DNA of 33,652 nucleotides from a virus (taxonomy: Duplodnaviria > Caudoviricetes), in IMG/VR virus record IMGVR_UViG_3300027362_000020, positions 1-33,652 of that record, one strand, 5' to 3'. Positions 4,232 through 24,337 of this stretch are shown here, piece by piece. Below the pieces are notes generated by a model. The model searched no databases, was not told where the DNA came from, and saw only the letters and a list, made by a program, of their open reading frames with translations. The translations under genes were made by a program, and so were the position numbers. Position 1 is the stretch's first letter, and each line of letters opens with the position of its first letter.

Positions 4232-4248
4232 CTTTTAGACACTTTTAC

Positions 4249-4277
4249 TTGACTATATTGCGCTTTTGCCATACTTT
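4249..4277 (+). promoter_or_regulatory. Putative sigma70 promoter for the brnT/brnA pair
   Basis: TTGACT (4249-4254), 17 bp spacer, TACTTT (4272-4277), upstream of ATG 4293. Confidence 0.55.
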
Positions 4278-4292
4278 TGGCAATATCCATCC

Positions 4293-4574
4293 ATGCAATT
4301 TGATTGGGATCCTAAAAAAAATATTAAGAATATCCTCGAGCATAGGGTTGATTTCGAGGATGCTAAAGAAGTTTTTGAGGATCCTTATCGGCTAACCTTC
4401 AATTCGGATTCTAGACATTCTACATTGGAGTGCCGAGAAGTATGCATCGGTAAAATTGATGATGGAATTTGCACAGTGAGATTTGTTAGAAGAAATAATA
4501 TAATAAGAATAATAGGCGCCGGGTTTTGGCGAAAAGAAAGGAGGATTTATGAAGAAAAAAATAAAATACACTAA
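4293..4574 (+). CDS. brnT: BrnT family (DUF497) ribonuclease toxin
   Basis: MQFDWDPKKNIKNILEHRVDFEDAKEVFEDP...E.R..CIG...IRIIGA...RKERRIYE. ATG 4293 preferred over TTG 4266. Confidence 0.88.
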   Translation: MQFDWDPKKNIKNILEHRVDFEDAKEVFEDPYRLTFNSDSRHSTLECREVCIGKIDDGICTVRFVRRNNIIRIIGAGFWRKERRIYEEKNKIH

Positions 4575-4788
4575 CGGTCCAATTGGAAAATGGAAAATGG
4601 TCGAGGATACCTTGCCACCACCAGAGGAATTTCTAGCAGGTTCTGGCCCTGGAAAAAAGATAACTCTGGCATTGGACGAAGAGACTATTAATCTTTTTAA
4701 GGGATTTACTAAGGCAAATAAAAGGTCTTATCAGAAATTAATCCGATTGGTACTTTGGCGATATGCTAAAGCAAATTTCCATGGGTAG
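4549..4788 (+). CDS. brnA: BrnA/CopG-like (RHH) antitoxin
   Basis: LPPPEE...KKITLALDEETINLFK...YQKLIRLVL; overlaps the toxin gene; AAGGAGG RBS. Confidence 0.82.
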   Translation: MKKKIKYTNGPIGKWKMVEDTLPPPEEFLAGSGPGKKITLALDEETINLFKGFTKANKRSYQKLIRLVLWRYAKANFHG

Positions 4789-4945
4789 GTATCTTTACAT
4801 CCTCCCCAATATCATATCCCTAATCACCTTTTGCTTTTTATATGCAAGCAAAATCCCCTCCCATTGGTATGAGTGGATGCTGGTGGTTTTGATAGTGGGG
4901 AATGTTTTGGGGTTGAGGGTGAGGATTAGGAAGAAAGTCAAATAA
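4781..4945 (+). CDS. Small two-TM membrane protein
   Basis: Two hydrophobic stretches and a basic C-terminus; ATG 4781 overlaps the end of brnA. Confidence 0.5.
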   Translation: MGRYLYILPNIISLITFCFLYASKIPSHWYEWMLVVLIVGNVLGLRVRIRKKVK

Positions 4946-4948
4946 TTC

Positions 4949-4979
4949 TTGACGCTTTAAATCTTCTTCTATATATATT
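4949..4979 (+). promoter_or_regulatory. Putative promoter for the HNH / RAMP gene / array unit
   Basis: TTGACG (4949-4954) followed by TATATATT (4972-4979), just before ATG 4985. Confidence 0.4.
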
Positions 4980-4984
4980 CCACG

Positions 4985-5398
4985 ATGCATCAAAGCCATA
5001 TAAAAGGCAGACCTCGAAAGAAGCAAAGAGAGGACTGGATTGAATTCCGACAAATAATAATTGACCGAGACAAATTCTGTCTTGGGTGTCATTCCATTGA
5101 AAATTTACAAGTTCACCATAATTCTTATGCCAATTTCAATGAAGAGAAATTGGAAGAATTGGGGACTTTTTGTAAACCCTGTCATACCGCAATAACTAGT
5201 TCTTTGAGAGAAAGAAGATATCTAATAACAAGGAGAAGATTAAATGGTAAAAAAACTGAAATTAAAGTTAATAGGAGTCGCCCCCCTAATAACGCACAAC
5301 AACCAAGGGGTGGATCCGCTAAACGAGTACGCAAAAGCAATAAAACAAATCTCTGGAAAAAAGCAAAAGACGGAGGCCGATCTTTACGAATTAGGTAG
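4985..5398 (+). CDS. HNH endonuclease (Zn-binding)
   Basis: RDKFCLGC...LQVHHNSY...L.TFCKPCH; the last 155 nt overlap the next gene. Confidence 0.8.
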   Translation: MHQSHIKGRPRKKQREDWIEFRQIIIDRDKFCLGCHSIENLQVHHNSYANFNEEKLEELGTFCKPCHTAITSSLRERRYLITRRRLNGKKTEIKVNRSRPPNNAQQPRGGSAKRVRKSNKTNLWKKAKDGGRSLRIR

Positions 5399-5819
5399 AT
5401 TGGAGTTTGAATCTGGTCTGTATATAAACGAAAAAGACCAAGTGATTCTACCTTCTAAGATTTTCGAGGGAATGCTTATTAATGGGGCCAAAAAGTTTAA
5501 AGAAGGACCAGCAGCGAAAGCGGGTGCCTTTGTCGAGGAAGATTCCTTACTGGAATTTAAAGATATGAAAACAAAAGGACAAAATCTTTTTGAAAAAAAA
5601 GAATATGTCTTTAGGGCCCCCGTAAAAGTTCAACAATCAACCATTATAAGAACTAGACCCATTTTTAATAAATGGTCCACAACTTTTGAAGTTCAATTTT
5701 TCCCGGATGTTTGTCAAAAAGAACAAATAATTAAATGGATTGAAAGGGCAGGAGAAGTTGTAGGAGCAGGAGATTATCGTCCTAGATACGGGAGATTTAC
5801 CGTTCAAGTTTTGAAATGA
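5244..5819 (+). CDS. Stand-alone RAMP/Cas7-like RNA-binding protein (Vipr-like), associated with the downstream pentamer array
   Basis: RAMP-like layout: N-terminal strand LKLIGVAPLITHN, ILPSKIFEGMLINGA helix motif, RTRPIF..W, C-terminal Gly-rich loop VGAGDYRPRYGRFTV. AGGAG RBS at 5231-5235. No other cas genes in the window. Confidence 0.75.
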   Translation: MVKKLKLKLIGVAPLITHNNQGVDPLNEYAKAIKQISGKKQKTEADLYELGRLEFESGLYINEKDQVILPSKIFEGMLINGAKKFKEGPAAKAGAFVEEDSLLEFKDMKTKGQNLFEKKEYVFRAPVKVQQSTIIRTRPIFNKWSTTFEVQFFPDVCQKEQIIKWIERAGEVVGAGDYRPRYGRFTVQVLK

Positions 5820-5823
5820 TCTG

Positions 5824-5893
5824 GATTTGGCGCGGTCGGATAGGCTTCGGCATGGCAAGGTTTGTCTCGGCTTGCTAGGGTTCCGCAGGGTTC
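5824..5893 (+). ncRNA. Putative guide RNA unit 1 (14 pentamers)
   Basis: GATtt GGCgc GGTcg GATag GCTtc GGCat GGCaa GGTtt GTCtc GGCtt GCTag GGTtc CGCag GGTtc. Confidence 0.65.
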
Positions 5894-5930
5894 GGATTTT
5901 TATTTTAAAATCGGAAAACTTTTATCCCAC

Positions 5931-6015
5931 GATGTGGCTGGGTGTGGTTCCGTCCGGTTCGGTTTGGTGCTGTGTGATTTGGCGCGATTCGGTCTGGCAT
6001 GGCTCGGTAGGGTAA
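5931..6015 (+). ncRNA. Putative guide RNA unit 2 (17 pentamers)
   Basis: GATgt GGCtg GGTgt GGTtc CGTcc GGTtc GGTtt GGTgc TGTgt GATtt GGCgc GATtc GGTct GGCat GGCtc GGTag GGTaa. Confidence 0.65.
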
Positions 6016-6050
6016 GGATTTATTTTTAAATTGAAACCCACTATTCATAG

Positions 6051-6130
6051 GGTCCGACTTGATTTGGTCGGGTGGTGTATGGTCAGGTGCGCTCAGCTTG
6101 TGTCGGGTTTGATGTGGTTTGGTCAGGTGA
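6051..6130 (+). ncRNA. Putative guide RNA unit 3 (16 pentamers)
   Basis: GGTcc GACtt GATtt GGTcg GGTgg TGTat GGTca GGTgc GCTca GCTtg TGTcg GGTtt GATgt GGTtt GGTca GGTga. Confidence 0.65.
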
Positions 6131-6164
6131 GGATTTATTTTAAAAACGAAACATTTTATCCTGA

Positions 6165-6239
6165 GGCTAGGTGTGATGTGATTTGCTAAGGCAGGATTCG
6201 ATATGGCATGGTCTGGTTTGGCGCGATGTGGTTCGGTAA
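6165..6239 (+). ncRNA. Putative guide RNA unit 4 (15 pentamers)
   Basis: GGCta GGTgt GATgt GATtt GCTaa GGCag GATtc GATat GGCat GGTct GGTtt GGCgc GATgt GGTtc GGTaa. Confidence 0.65.
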
Positions 6240-6243
6240 ATAG

Positions 6244-6269
6244 GGGAGGGCTTTTGCTCTCCCTTTTTT
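6244..6269 (+). terminator. Intrinsic terminator closing the array
   Basis: GGGAGGGC-TTTT-GCTCTCCC stem-loop followed by TTTTTT. Confidence 0.85.
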
Positions 6270-6308
6270 CCTATTTAATTCCTTCTAATTATACTTTAAA
6301 CTATCGGC

Positions 6309-7619
6309 ATGGGTATTTTAGAACGCATAAAACAAGTATTTGCACCGCAAGATACTACTAATGTCAATTTTTCTTCACTTCCCATCTATTCTTTGCATGG
6401 AGAGCACGTAAATTCCGAATCAGCTATGAGACAATCTTGTGTTTTTGCTTGCGTGAAAGCAATTTCAGAGGTTACGGCATCTTTGCCCATAAAGGTTTAC
6501 AAAACAGATTGGATATCTGACAGGGAATTTCTCCCAAATCACCCCTTATATTATCTTTTGAACTTCAGACCAAATCCCCTCCAAAGTGGTTATGAGATAA
6601 AGCAACAGATTGCGGCTTCCTTGGTTCTCCACTCTGTTGCTTATGTTTTCGTCCAGCGGGATATTTATGATCGTCCTGTGAGTCTAACGCCTATAGATCC
6701 TTCATTAGTCAGTGTTGTTTGGAACGATTCGCATACCGATTTAATTTATTATGTTGGCGAGATAGGATTAAAATTAACTGGTCAGACATTTACCAAAAGA
6801 GAAATTCTGCATATTAGAGGTTTTTCTAAAGGGGTAATTAATCCCCTTTCCCCCATAAATTATGGAAGCAAATCAATTGGATTGGATATTTCCCTACAAA
6901 AACATCAAGAGAGCAGCTTTGGCCCAAATTCCAGCAGGCCCGGCGGAACCATAGAGGGTCCGAATCCAATTTCGAGTGAAGTCGCAAAACGGGTTTTGGA
7001 ATTATTCCGAACTAGCTATACGGGAAATGCTAATACAAATAAAATCATGCTTTTGGATAATGGATTAACTTTTAAACCAATTTCAATGAATGATAATATT
7101 TCATTACAACTCATCGAAAATAAAAACGCATCACTTGGAGATATTTGCAGATTCTTTATGGTCCCTGGACCTGTTATAGGATTTACAAAAGATAGCTCAT
7201 ACCAAACTGTGGAGCAAGTAATTTTGACTTGGCTCAACTTCTGTTTGAAGCCCCTCTTTCAATGTTTCGCTCAGGCGTGCGCGCGCGACCTTCTGAAAGA
7301 AAGGGACGTAATGAACTATGAAATCAGTTTCGATTATACGACGGTGCTTACTGGCGGACTAGATAGCACATCCCAGTCACTCGCTAGACTGGTACAGGGT
7401 GGAATTTTTACACCCAATGAAGCTCGCTCTTATCTTGGAAAAGATGGAGTTGATTCCCCGGCGTGTGACCAATTGTTTATCCAACAGAATATGACAAGTG
7501 TAGATCAACTTCAAAAACAATCGGAACAAGCCGATCAATCTTCCCAAGTACAGCAAGAAGCTGCACAATTAAATAAAACGATCCTTGAAGAACAGATAAA
7601 ATTATTAAAGGAGATATAA
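6309..7619 (+). CDS. Portal protein, HK97 family
   Basis: VFACVKAISEVTASLP, HPLYYLLNFRPN, EILHIR, ICRFFMVP, TPNEAR motifs. Confidence 0.95.
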   Translation: MGILERIKQVFAPQDTTNVNFSSLPIYSLHGEHVNSESAMRQSCVFACVKAISEVTASLPIKVYKTDWISDREFLPNHPLYYLLNFRPNPLQSGYEIKQQIAASLVLHSVAYVFVQRDIYDRPVSLTPIDPSLVSVVWNDSHTDLIYYVGEIGLKLTGQTFTKREILHIRGFSKGVINPLSPINYGSKSIGLDISLQKHQESSFGPNSSRPGGTIEGPNPISSEVAKRVLELFRTSYTGNANTNKIMLLDNGLTFKPISMNDNISLQLIENKNASLGDICRFFMVPGPVIGFTKDSSYQTVEQVILTWLNFCLKPLFQCFAQACARDLLKERDVMNYEISFDYTTVLTGGLDSTSQSLARLVQGGIFTPNEARSYLGKDGVDSPACDQLFIQQNMTSVDQLQKQSEQADQSSQVQQEAAQLNKTILEEQIKLLKEI

Positions 7620-15826: not shown

Positions 15827-16353
15827 TGCGCAACCGGGTTTATATTTACTTTTCCAAACCAAAATCTATTTTCTGGTTTCCTTTATCTTTTATAATTAGG
15901 CTAATAGAATCCCCAACTAAATGTAAATTATGGCATTCATCCCATGCCGCAATTGAATTAGATGAGAATGTTTATGAGGCGATCCTTTTCATTGGCGTTA
16001 GAAAAATTCCCTTTCATTCCTGGCTTAAAAAGAATCACATGGAAAAAAAGTATTACCTGGATATCTCGGAGGACGACTTTGAAGATATCTTTTATTTCTG
16101 CGAAGGATCCATAGGAATACCCTACGCAACGCTAGAATTATTTGGTCTATTATATTCCAAAATAATGCTGCATTTATTTAATCGTCAGATTAAAAATCCT
16201 CTGAATATAATATCACGCAAGGTTAAGTGTACTGAATTTGTCCTTGAATCCCTTTCCAAGGTTCACAAAATAGATTTAAAATCAGACATAAATAATATCG
16301 GGGTGCGGGATGCGGAACTTATTATCGCCCCTATTTGCAAGGAGATACTATGA
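15826..16353 (+). CDS. Permuted papain-like (YiiX/YebB-type) enzyme
   Basis: His before Cys: SHAAI...VYEA...GIPY...KCTEFV. Confidence 0.65.
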   Translation: MRNRVYIYFSKPKSIFWFPLSFIIRLIESPTKCKLWHSSHAAIELDENVYEAILFIGVRKIPFHSWLKKNHMEKKYYLDISEDDFEDIFYFCEGSIGIPYATLELFGLLYSKIMLHLFNRQIKNPLNIISRKVKCTEFVLESLSKVHKIDLKSDINNIGVRDAELIIAPICKEIL

Positions 16354-17120
16354 AAATCATTCTAATACTTTTGCTTTCGCTCCCTATCTTCGCCGAAGAA
16401 ATTGGGGATTTTACAAACTACTATTTGAAGGGAAGAAAAACTCATTTCATTAACCCAGGTCGATTAGACGAAACCCAGGATCAGCTTTACGTGGAATCCA
16501 AAGGCGAAGTAGGTTTCAAAAAAGATAATTACTTTCTAGGTGCTACCGGTGAAAGATTGTCCGCTGCCATTATGCCGGTAGATAACTTTGGACTATCAGC
16601 TTTTATTTCTGCTTTCAATGGGGAAGGGATAGAAAAATACGGAGCAAGATTTGGAACCAACCTAGCGGAGAACTATAATTTCTACGTTGGTTTTGAAGAT
16701 GCAAAAGATAGCAAGTTTACCCCAGTCTTAGGACTTGGACTAGAAGTTTTAAAAGGTGCTTTATTCTTGGAATACAACGGACAATTAAGTTCCCCCGATG
16801 AGTATAACTATCTGGCAGGCTGGGGAAAAATTTACGATAACTTTTTTGGCGATTTAACTTATGCCTCGGATAACTTTAAAAATAGGGCATTAGCGATAAC
16901 CGTTGGTGGAAAATCCCACCTCTTTGAAAGATTGATTGGGACCGCTGCCATTTCCAAAGAACTTTATTTCACCAAAGAACTAAAGGCATCCACCCACCTT
17001 CAATGGTTTCCAACCAACAGACTTGAACTTTATTTAATAAATAATTTCATGGCGTTTGGTTTAGCGGATCCTAAGTACGGTGATTTCGATGTGAACGTTG
17101 GCCTTTCCTATTATCTTTAA
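16350..17120 (+). CDS. Putative outer-membrane beta-barrel protein
   Basis: Signal peptide MKIILILLLSLPIFA, alternating amphipathic strands, C-terminal DVNVGLSYYL; AGGAG RBS before ATG 16350. Confidence 0.6.
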   Translation: MKIILILLLSLPIFAEEIGDFTNYYLKGRKTHFINPGRLDETQDQLYVESKGEVGFKKDNYFLGATGERLSAAIMPVDNFGLSAFISAFNGEGIEKYGARFGTNLAENYNFYVGFEDAKDSKFTPVLGLGLEVLKGALFLEYNGQLSSPDEYNYLAGWGKIYDNFFGDLTYASDNFKNRALAITVGGKSHLFERLIGTAAISKELYFTKELKASTHLQWFPTNRLELYLINNFMAFGLADPKYGDFDVNVGLSYYL

Positions 17121-17503: not shown

Positions 17504-18178
17504 ATGAAAAAAAGAAAGATAAATAAGAATAAATTGTTTTACAAAGGAAGCAAATTTGGAAGGCTTTTAGTGCTTGAAGATCTACCCAATAAGGGAAAGC
17601 AACCAAGGTTAAAGGCTATTTGTGATTGTGGAAATATCAGAGACTATTTTTCCCAGGCATTAAAGAATGGGAATACTACGTCTTGTGGTTGCTATAGGGA
17701 TTCGCTTTTGATTACCCATGGAGAGTACAAAACCCCTGAATACCGAGCAATGATAAACGCCCAGCAAAGATGCACTAATTCTAAAAGAAGGGGATATGAG
17801 AATTATGGCGGGAAAGGAGTCAGATTCCTTTTTAAATCTTACGAGGAATTTATAAATCATGTTGGAAAAAGAACTTCGCCAAAACATTCCTTGGACAGAT
17901 ATCCTGACACGGATGGAAATTATGAAATTGGTAATGTTCGATGGGCTACGAGACTTGAGCAGAATCTAAATCGAAGGAAGCCTAAGAATGATAATATCCC
18001 CAGAGGGGTTTCGGTCAGAAATTTGAAAAATGGCGGACATACATATACTGCTAGAATTACTTTAGATTATAAAGTAAAAACCTTGGGGGTATTTCCGACA
18101 ATGATCCAAGCGGAAAAGGCATATCTGTTTGCTTATTTTAGGGCGTATAAAGAAATGCCGCCTGAATATAGAGGATGA
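17504..18178 (+). CDS. HNH homing endonuclease with a C-terminal AP2-like domain
   Basis: FGRLLVL, CDCG, TTSCGC, NYGGKGV, SLDRYPDTDGNYEIGNVRWATRLEQ; RGVS...YTARI...LGVF.T...A. Confidence 0.85.
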   Translation: MKKRKINKNKLFYKGSKFGRLLVLEDLPNKGKQPRLKAICDCGNIRDYFSQALKNGNTTSCGCYRDSLLITHGEYKTPEYRAMINAQQRCTNSKRRGYENYGGKGVRFLFKSYEEFINHVGKRTSPKHSLDRYPDTDGNYEIGNVRWATRLEQNLNRRKPKNDNIPRGVSVRNLKNGGHTYTARITLDYKVKTLGVFPTMIQAEKAYLFAYFRAYKEMPPEYRG

Positions 18179-23128: not shown

Positions 23129-24337
23129 TTGTCTATGGGCGGAAAAAGAAAATACTCAGACAAAGAAGTTAAAATTGAATTATCCAAATTTACCTCAACA
23201 AAAGATTTAATTGAAAAATCTATGTGGGCATATGCCGCTGCTAAAAGAAGAGGATTTTTAGAAGAATTTGAATTAACCCAAAATACTCAATGGTCTAAAA
23301 AAACTGACTTAGAACTTCATGAAGTTGCTAAAAAATTTAAATTTAAAAGCGATTTCTGCAAAGAACTACCTGGGGCATATAACGAAGCTAAAAAAAGAGG
23401 GCTGTTCAATCTTATAACTAGTCATATGGGGAAAAAGGTTTTTAGACAATATACAGATGAACAAGTAATCCTCGAAGGTAAAAAGTTTGAGACTAAAAAA
23501 GATTTTAGGAAATTTTCAATTAATTTTTATACGGTGGCAGTTAAAAGAAAGTTGATTTATGATCTTGAACCTTTTTGGACTCCTTCAGGAAGCAAATATT
23601 TCCGTTGTATTTATGCTTTAATATTTCCTGATAAAGCAATTTATTTTGGTTTATCATTGGATTTCTCCGAAAGAATAAATTCCCATTTGAGGAAGTCCTG
23701 TAATAAATATGTCAGAGAATTGTTAAAAACCCAAACACCAAAAATAATTCAATTAACTGGATATATGGAAAGACAGGATGCCAGGGTCTTGGAGAGGTCA
23801 AAAATAAAAGAATTCAAATCTAGAGGATGGAGGGTATTGAATATAAAAAATGGCGGAGAATTGGGTGGATTAGTAGAAAAATATTCTGATGAATCTATTA
23901 TGGAAAAAGTAATGGATTGTAAGTCTATGGCCGAATTTAGAGAAAAATATCCTTCTTTTTATAGCTTGGCTGCTCAAAGGAGATTGATTGAAAAGTGTCA
24001 TGCAATTTTCGGTACGGAGGCTCAAAAAAGCAGGGCCTTGGTTACCTTTGAGGAATGCCTAGACATGGCAAAAGATTTAAAAGGAAGATCAGAGTTATAT
24101 AAAAAATCTACCAGACATTATATGGCAGCCAAAAATAATGGTTGGTTGGACCTTATTTTGCCTTTGATATATAATCCTCAAGGCAAATATGAGACTTTTG
24201 AAGAATGCCAAAAGGCTGCCGCGCAATGTGATAGCAGATGGGATTTCAGTAAGAAATTTAGAGTAGCTTATTATACGAGTAGAAAAAACGGATGGATGGA
24301 TATATTCTTTAAGGATAAAAGGAAGAAAAATGAATGA
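23129..24337 (+). CDS. GIY-YIG endonuclease flanked by six helical repeats
   Basis: CIYALIF...IYFGLS....R...H, later LE...I and LN...GG; start may be ATG 23135. Confidence 0.75.
   Translation: MSMGGKRKYSDKEVKIELSKFTSTKDLIEKSMWAYAAAKRRGFLEEFELTQNTQWSKKTDLELHEVAKKFKFKSDFCKELPGAYNEAKKRGLFNLITSHMGKKVFRQYTDEQVILEGKKFETKKDFRKFSINFYTVAVKRKLIYDLEPFWTPSGSKYFRCIYALIFPDKAIYFGLSLDFSERINSHLRKSCNKYVRELLKTQTPKIIQLTGYMERQDARVLERSKIKEFKSRGWRVLNIKNGGELGGLVEKYSDESIMEKVMDCKSMAEFREKYPSFYSLAAQRRLIEKCHAIFGTEAQKSRALVTFEECLDMAKDLKGRSELYKKSTRHYMAAKNNGWLDLILPLIYNPQGKYETFEECQKAAAQCDSRWDFSKKFRVAYYTSRKNGWMDIFFKDKRKKNE

Follow-up and report, generated by a model that had tools for sequence, protein, structure and literature searches.

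What is a five-base-periodic tract aimed at, when a phage carries it directly upstream of its own portal gene? The tract lies in a virus record of 33,652 bases (the window, meaning the whole stretch of DNA analysed) and comes from an HK97-like phage, here called the carrier, whose genes for packaging, heads and tails it contains. A sequence-only reading had proposed that the last unit of the tract, read with one base skipped per pair, decodes to a diverged homologue of the carrier's own portal protein, and that it is a guide complementary to the portal gene of a related, competing phage.

The VIPR locus and its setting

The interval between the terminase and portal genes contains a BrnT-like toxin gene, a likely antitoxin, a small membrane ORF, an HNH-like ORF, an ORF of 191 aa and the periodic tract. 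The features that matter for the argument are as follows.

4985-5398, + strand: HNH-like ORF, 137 aa, a possible accessory (vap) gene (PHROG HNH endonuclease, E 2.9e-5; Atlas HNH clusters, 0.95-0.96)
5244-5819, + strand: vipr gene, 191 aa, predicted guide-binding protein of the RAMP fold (phmmer, profile, predicted fold)
5824-5893, + strand: guide unit 1, 14 pentamers (pentamer parse)
5936-6015, + strand: guide unit 2, 16 pentamers (pentamer parse)
6051-6130, + strand: guide unit 3, 16 pentamers (pentamer parse)
5894-6164, + strand: three related AT-rich spacers or tails between the units, at 5894-5935, 6016-6050 and 6131-6164 (repeat families D3, D4, D20)
6165-6239, + strand: guide unit 4, 14-15 pentamers, fitting the portal gene of close relatives (pentamer parse, gapped matches)
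6242-6272, + strand: terminator-like hairpin at the end of the array (fold z -4.14; none of 200 shuffles equally stable)
6309-7619, + strand: carrier portal gene, HK97 family, directly downstream of the array (Pfam Phage_portal, E 2.4e-73; HK97 portal 8cez, E 1.1e-35)

The 191-aa protein has no Pfam family match. It aligns over residues 3-190 with the solved Vipr of SUSP1 (PDB 36pp; phmmer E 8.4e-27, profile search E 1.6e-55), and its model (pLDDT 94.9) has Csm3/Cas7-type RAMPs as Foldseek matches; homology and fold matches together mark it as a RAMP homologue of the single-RRM kind, with a thumb and a G-loop. The RNA and DNA contacts that passages of the structure paper give for SUSP1 Vipr (H17, K82, R138, D177, W178, R179) fall on carrier H18, K83, R138, D177, Y178 and R179 in the phmmer alignment, from which the GGY-reading residues (H17, R138, D177, W/Y178, R179) and the strand clamp (K82) of published systems can be read. 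SUSP1 K88 and R39 align to P89 and K40, which we count against our main reading. The carrier's Vipr is about 30% identical to Felixounavirus-type Vipr proteins; its ORF is intact, and the first 155 bases are shared, in a different frame, with the HNH-like ORF at 4985-5398.

Behind vipr, the array (5824-6239) comprises four GGY/NN guide units and is the only five-base-periodic tract in the window. Published systems have, next to vipr, noncoding tracts of 9-16 pentamers that follow GGY/NN or some related consensus; the four units here have 14-16 each. The triplet is GGY in 37 of the 60 pentamers, with G at the first position in 55, G at the second in 42 and a pyrimidine at the third in all 60. 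Canonical triplets make up 8 of 14 in unit 4, the rest being five GAT and one GCT, and this too counts against the main reading, as does the absence after unit 4 of the spacer or tail found downstream of units 1-3; the triplets of units 1-3 are degenerate too. In VIPR systems each repeat tract is followed by a conserved, structured 3' tail. Folded alone, the AT-rich spacers here form no stable structure (z about 0) and none stands 3' of unit 4, and the spacer between units may instead serve as a 5' leader or processing site. A CRISPR mini-array was considered and rejected, as the tract shows five-base alternation and not direct repeats with contiguous spacers, and Rfam gave no CRISPR repeat in the array at gathering score. 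By its sequence, the locus at 5244-6239 is a VIPR system.

The window ends within the tail region and a replication module was not seen in its 33,652 bases, so it is probably a partial genome. Across the window and the relatives L005, L006 and L013, the terminase-portal interval (window 4232-6308) is a variable cargo slot, holding the toxin-antitoxin-like pair, HNH-like ORF and VIPR in the window, a GIY-YIG repeat protein in L006 and other nuclease-like ORFs in L005 and L013; a piece of about 145 bp from a small membrane ORF is shared, at 89-97% identity. Further HNH- or GIY-YIG-looking ORFs (motifs judged by eye) interrupt the structural genes at 59-490, 17504-18178 and 23129-24337, and the tail region includes an ORF for 261 aa (16335-17120) with a signal-peptide-like start and no PHROG family.

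The carrier was found in groundwater and freshwater-sediment DNA runs, seven of the 12 listed, which may be one campaign, containing at least half of the sampled words; among the matches listed there were no RNA runs. In run X1 a single contig covers 4883-7700 with 0 differences, so the array and the portal gene are physically linked, and the array is identical in contigs L002-L004. A search of genome_contigs found no relatives of the carrier and no host, and the best listed matches of its capsid to annotated phages reach at most about 34% identity. No other close VIPR locus was found in viral_contigs, nor vipr in any of the fetched loci of relatives, which are fragments.

Unit 4 and the portal genes of related phages

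The pairs of unit 4 had been transcribed correctly as ta gt gt tt aa ag tc at at ct tt gc gt tc aa, over 15 pentamers. The fifteenth may be the 3' end and not part of the guide, and scores below are mostly over 14 pentamers (28 read bases). As had been reported, the one-skip reverse complement fits 9 of 14 residues of a segment of the carrier portal, in frame (EVAKRVLELFRTSY).

6978-7019, + strand: the carrier's own counterpart of the unit 4 target (a match at 19 of 28 read bases; 7 of 14 units mismatched)

The five remaining residue differences had been called conservative; T/V scores 0 in BLOSUM62 and is neutral. At the nucleotide level we recover the count of 7 of 14 matching dinucleotides, and agree that this match is unconvincing: 19 of 30 bases over 15 units is no better than the best off-rule matches (17-23 bases, leaving aside each unit's own array at skip 3). 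The argument had been placed at the protein level, and there it holds. Over 33 window ORFs the best BLOSUM score, 54, falls at the portal site, and shuffled pairs gave a mean of 30.5 and a maximum of 49, none of 3000 reaching 54 (0 of 600 in six frames); by the count of compatible residues alone, a value of 9 or more turns up in 18 of 3000 shuffles. Against window ORFs, both orientations of units 1-3 and the same-strand reading of unit 4 stay at chance level. No self target reaches 80%, the best skip-1 self matches being 19-20 of 30-32 bases in a window that is probably partial, and at the portal site never more than two consecutive units match.

Searching viral_contigs (IMG/VR) with the 14-dinucleotide skip-1 pattern of unit 4 gave a single exact match (28 of 28), in contig L001 (lineage A), where about 1e-5 would be expected by chance in 2e11 positions, an assumed upper size. 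The match covers portal codons 224-237, homologous to the self site, and reads ETAKRIMELFKTTY; every skipped base is the third of its codon and the guide complements the coding strand, which supports the proposed complementarity to the sense strand of a related phage's portal gene. With the fifteenth pentamer the match is 29 of 30, and gaps of 0, 2 or 3 on the same contig give at most 17-18 of 28, as against 28 at a skip of one. L001 is 75-77% identical to the carrier in DNA over terminase, portal, protease and capsid, its portal being 79% identical. L006 and L012 are further recoveries of the L001 contig, which leaves a single exact target sequence at the DNA level. The large terminase ORF is split in L001 (6069-7265 and 5661-6014, - strand) and in L011 (2410-4002), by mutation or assembly error.

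Portal searches added four further lineages, and at the homologous site the guide matches 28 of 28 read bases in lineage A (L001), 27 in B (L013, L020, L021), 25 in C (L005, L011, L014), 24 in D (L015, L017), 22 in E (L016) and 19 in the carrier, whose own portal is thus outscored by all five other lineages. Scores of 28, 27, 25 and 24 lie above the 80% match that VIPR targets in other mobile elements show under a one-nucleotide skip that is mostly at the wobble base. At the site, what separates lineage B from A is 7 of the 14 wobble bases and a single first codon position. The portals of D and E are just 54-58% identical to the carrier's, yet they match the guide better than it does; portals at most 36% identical give background scores. 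Among 13 portal proteins of the close cluster that cover the site, all 14 residues are compatible in 10 and 13 of 14 in 3, a further member being a fragment that lacks the site and was left out.

Among the pieces listed, lineage A pieces with 0 differences occurred in three of the four runs that contain the carrier (X1, X2, X3), and those for run X4 included no difference-free piece. The pieces are 151-251 bases long with a depth of 2-3; of those listed, not one extends across the target site, and the four runs may be the window's own source. By their relatedness, the carrier and its kin may share a host.

For units 1-3, exact 10-dinucleotide patterns had no match in viral_contigs, nor did 13 dinucleotides of unit 1 in metagenome_contigs or 12 of unit 2 in genome_contigs, and unit 1 with up to three mismatches was not found in two distant virus records. 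In 443,862 bases from 45 fetched loci, counting duplicates, units 1, 2 and 3 matched at best 20/28, 22/32 and 21/32. A looser unit 1 pattern gave eight loci, the best (23/28, ten 5' units perfect) being in L046 at the start of a 48-aa HTH-like ORF (1398-1544, - strand) upstream of terminase-like genes. We treat this as a lead only, because the pattern itself largely dictates 18 of its bases and a search for homologues came back empty; by our estimate 23/28 is no more than a collection of such size gives by chance. Decoded units 1-3 did not exceed shuffles against Vipr homologues and the proteins of 10 close loci (best 10/300, in one of 12 tests). No target was established for units 1-3, so the case for kin as targets covers unit 4 and does not extend to the whole array, which counts against the main reading.

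A divergent patch in the carrier portal

The guide footprint lies inside a block of the portal gene that sets the carrier apart from its relatives.

6930-7073, + strand: divergent portal patch, residues about 208-255, around the guide footprint (identity comparison, scan statistic)

Over residues 209-255 the carrier is 55-57% identical to five close kin, as against 78-83% elsewhere in the portal, and the kin are 81-100% identical among themselves. The block was picked after the data had been seen and a scan statistic was run on that account: a single 47-residue window collects 14 of the 29 carrier-only residues, a concentration that one of 5000 permutations reaches. The 30 other scans, of lineages and genes, had 25 of 2000 as their smallest value. 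When pseudo-guides were drawn from the lineage A portal, 28 of 381 windows equalled or exceeded the kin-minus-self contrast of unit 4, and the 20 best, which were listed, all lie in the patch.

The patch has three times the length of the footprint and stands as far from the kin as do lineages D and E. On sequence comparison, recombination that brought it in from an unsampled lineage is therefore a more likely origin than point selection on 14 codons. Residues shared with outgroups were not significantly enriched in the patch (9/14 against 7/15, p 0.46). Because any surviving guide needs a low self match, the overlap of guide and patch is compatible with either having come first. Mosaicism runs through the family: relative to the carrier, L021 has a TerL 96% identical and a portal 75% identical, L013 has a capsid at 95%, and L016 a portal at 54% and a protease at 87%, and L013 and L020 have a common portal and capsids at 95% and 80%.

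The patch aligns to residues of about 222-270 of the HK97 portal, which we take to be the clip domain. Published work describes the portal clip as meeting the terminase. Strict co-evolution of clip and terminase was considered and is a poor fit to the patch, as the TerL of L021 is 96% identical to the carrier's and its portal is of the kin type. The carrier portal model had a mean pLDDT of 45.9 and was set aside.

Probable silencing of kin and its meaning

We put at about 0.8 the probability of the following reading as a whole. Unit 4 is a VIPR guide that, by the one-base-skip code, matches the portal gene of the carrier's close relatives; it likely directs Vipr to silence a rival's portal gene and, since the kin match is 28 of 28 and the self match 19 of 28, the carrier's diverged copy likely escapes. 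As VIPR has no PAM, self-tolerance would rest on mismatches at the target site alone. By analogy with SUSP1, a + strand transcript would be cut or ended into RNAs of about 100 nt, Vipr would coat the GGY triplets of the unit 4 RNA, each NN would pair with the first two positions of a codon on the coding strand of the rival, and the filament, once bound, would block transcription about 670 bp into the rival portal gene. Polar effects of the block would likely reach the protease, capsid and tail genes that follow the portal, and a relative that co-infects or is resident would then form no heads. From this analogy we infer competition and silencing between the carrier and its kin. Two points bear on the scheme: perturbation of GGY abolished silencing in SUSP1 (10.64898/2026.04.26.720920), and the carrier's portal might complement the rival during co-infection, which counts against the main reading.

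Destruction of the same target, with the HNH-like ORF as an accessory nuclease that cuts bound rival DNA, is unlikely. That ORF lies directly upstream of vipr and is missing from the slot in L005, L006 and L013, and both HNH-bearing Vap proteins and nuclease-encoding types have been described; the nuclease types, however, are tied to cellular defence islands (10.64898/2026.04.26.720920), and HNH genes are common cargo beside packaging genes in the carrier's phage family. Slightly less probable is a relic, a guide once copied from or tuned to the lineage A portal and no longer used. The six non-canonical triplets among 14 in unit 4, its missing downstream tail and an array invariant across the carrier's contigs would suit a relic, but all 28 read bases still fit an extant, co-occurring lineage, each of the 60 pentamers keeps its pyrimidine at position 3, the triplets of units 1-3 are degenerate as well and the vipr ORF is intact. 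Autoregulation, in which the guide binds the carrier's own portal gene weakly and delays late genes, with the kin match due to ancestry, is very improbable, for although that gene adjoins the array and holds the best skip-1 match in the window, 19 of 28 (68%) is at background level and below the 80% cut-off for natural targets, at most two consecutive units match, and five other lineages match better, even with portals 54-58% identical.

The silencing reading places the carrier beside several known systems. Like the VIPR of SUSP1 and the type II system of Pseudomonas fulva (10.64898/2026.04.26.720920, 10.64898/2026.04.26.720927), its locus is phage-borne, with a Vipr homologue, an array of 14-16-repeat GGY/NN units, a one-nucleotide wobble skip, a target in another phage and no self match of 80% or more. 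It differs in its more degenerate triplets (37/60 GGY) and AT-rich spacers and in having an HNH-like neighbour upstream in place of a downstream vap1; as targets, the text of those papers names satellites, regulators of lysogeny and further VIPR loci, whereas the carrier's is the orthologue of its own adjacent core virion gene. The solo and anti-VIPR vrRNAs of SUSP1-family phages (10.64898/2026.10.15.759431) also guide against relatives, match self less well than the rival and have wobble-aligned footprints, but are aimed at vipr, vrRNAs, satellites or REP elements. The mini-CRISPR arrays of the viruses SPV1 and SPV2 (Medvedeva et al. 2019, PMC6858448) likewise target close relatives in one population, with the orthologous self locus mutated and the target near the array, and heterotypic superinfection exclusion was proposed there; they use contiguous spacers and host Cas proteins, whereas the carrier has a phage-encoded effector, a gapped code and no PAM.

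In the text and supplement PDF of 10.64898/2026.04.26.720920 and the available text of 10.64898/2026.04.26.720927 and 10.64898/2026.10.15.759431, portal or other kin core genes were not found as named VIPR targets, though data tables S1-S4 and figures may list structural-gene targets; the word portal is absent from the first two and from that supplement, and in the passages of the last it is confined to the methods. We found no further literature devoted to VIPR. The gapped code, the one-nucleotide skip and the argument from wobble escape, which the sequence-only reading implied to be new, are set out in two papers of 2026 (10.64898/2026.04.26.720920, 10.64898/2026.10.15.759431), and neither the code nor wobble blindness is therefore new here. 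What the analysis adds is the resolved kin target, the natural mismatch series and the divergent self patch.

P0002, a Vipr homologue 57% identical to the carrier's, and P0136, a lineage B portal, both have a longest contig of 44,126 bases. From this equal length, the targeted lineage B may carry a VIPR of its own elsewhere in its genome. A wider and tentative reading, which we think more doubtful than probable, makes VIPR a kin-exclusion weapon that reshapes the virion core: about 47 portal codons, probably of the terminase-docking clip, would have been swapped for a patch from a distant lineage so that a PAM-less, wobble-blind guide against the portal of the phage's own family could be carried, at least one targeted lineage would have its own Vipr, and a reciprocal guide war would drive the divergence of kin.

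The locus provides a resolved natural triplet of guide, target and self for a system first described in 2026. The graded series (28, 27, 25, 24, 22 and 19 of 28) is a usable measure of VIPR mismatch tolerance and of self-discrimination without a PAM, and the match to both A and B, despite differences in half of the skipped bases, is natural wobble blindness in a system whose Vipr is far from those characterised. Should the patch have arisen in response to the guide, VIPR would count among the forces that shape how the most conserved phage genes evolve.
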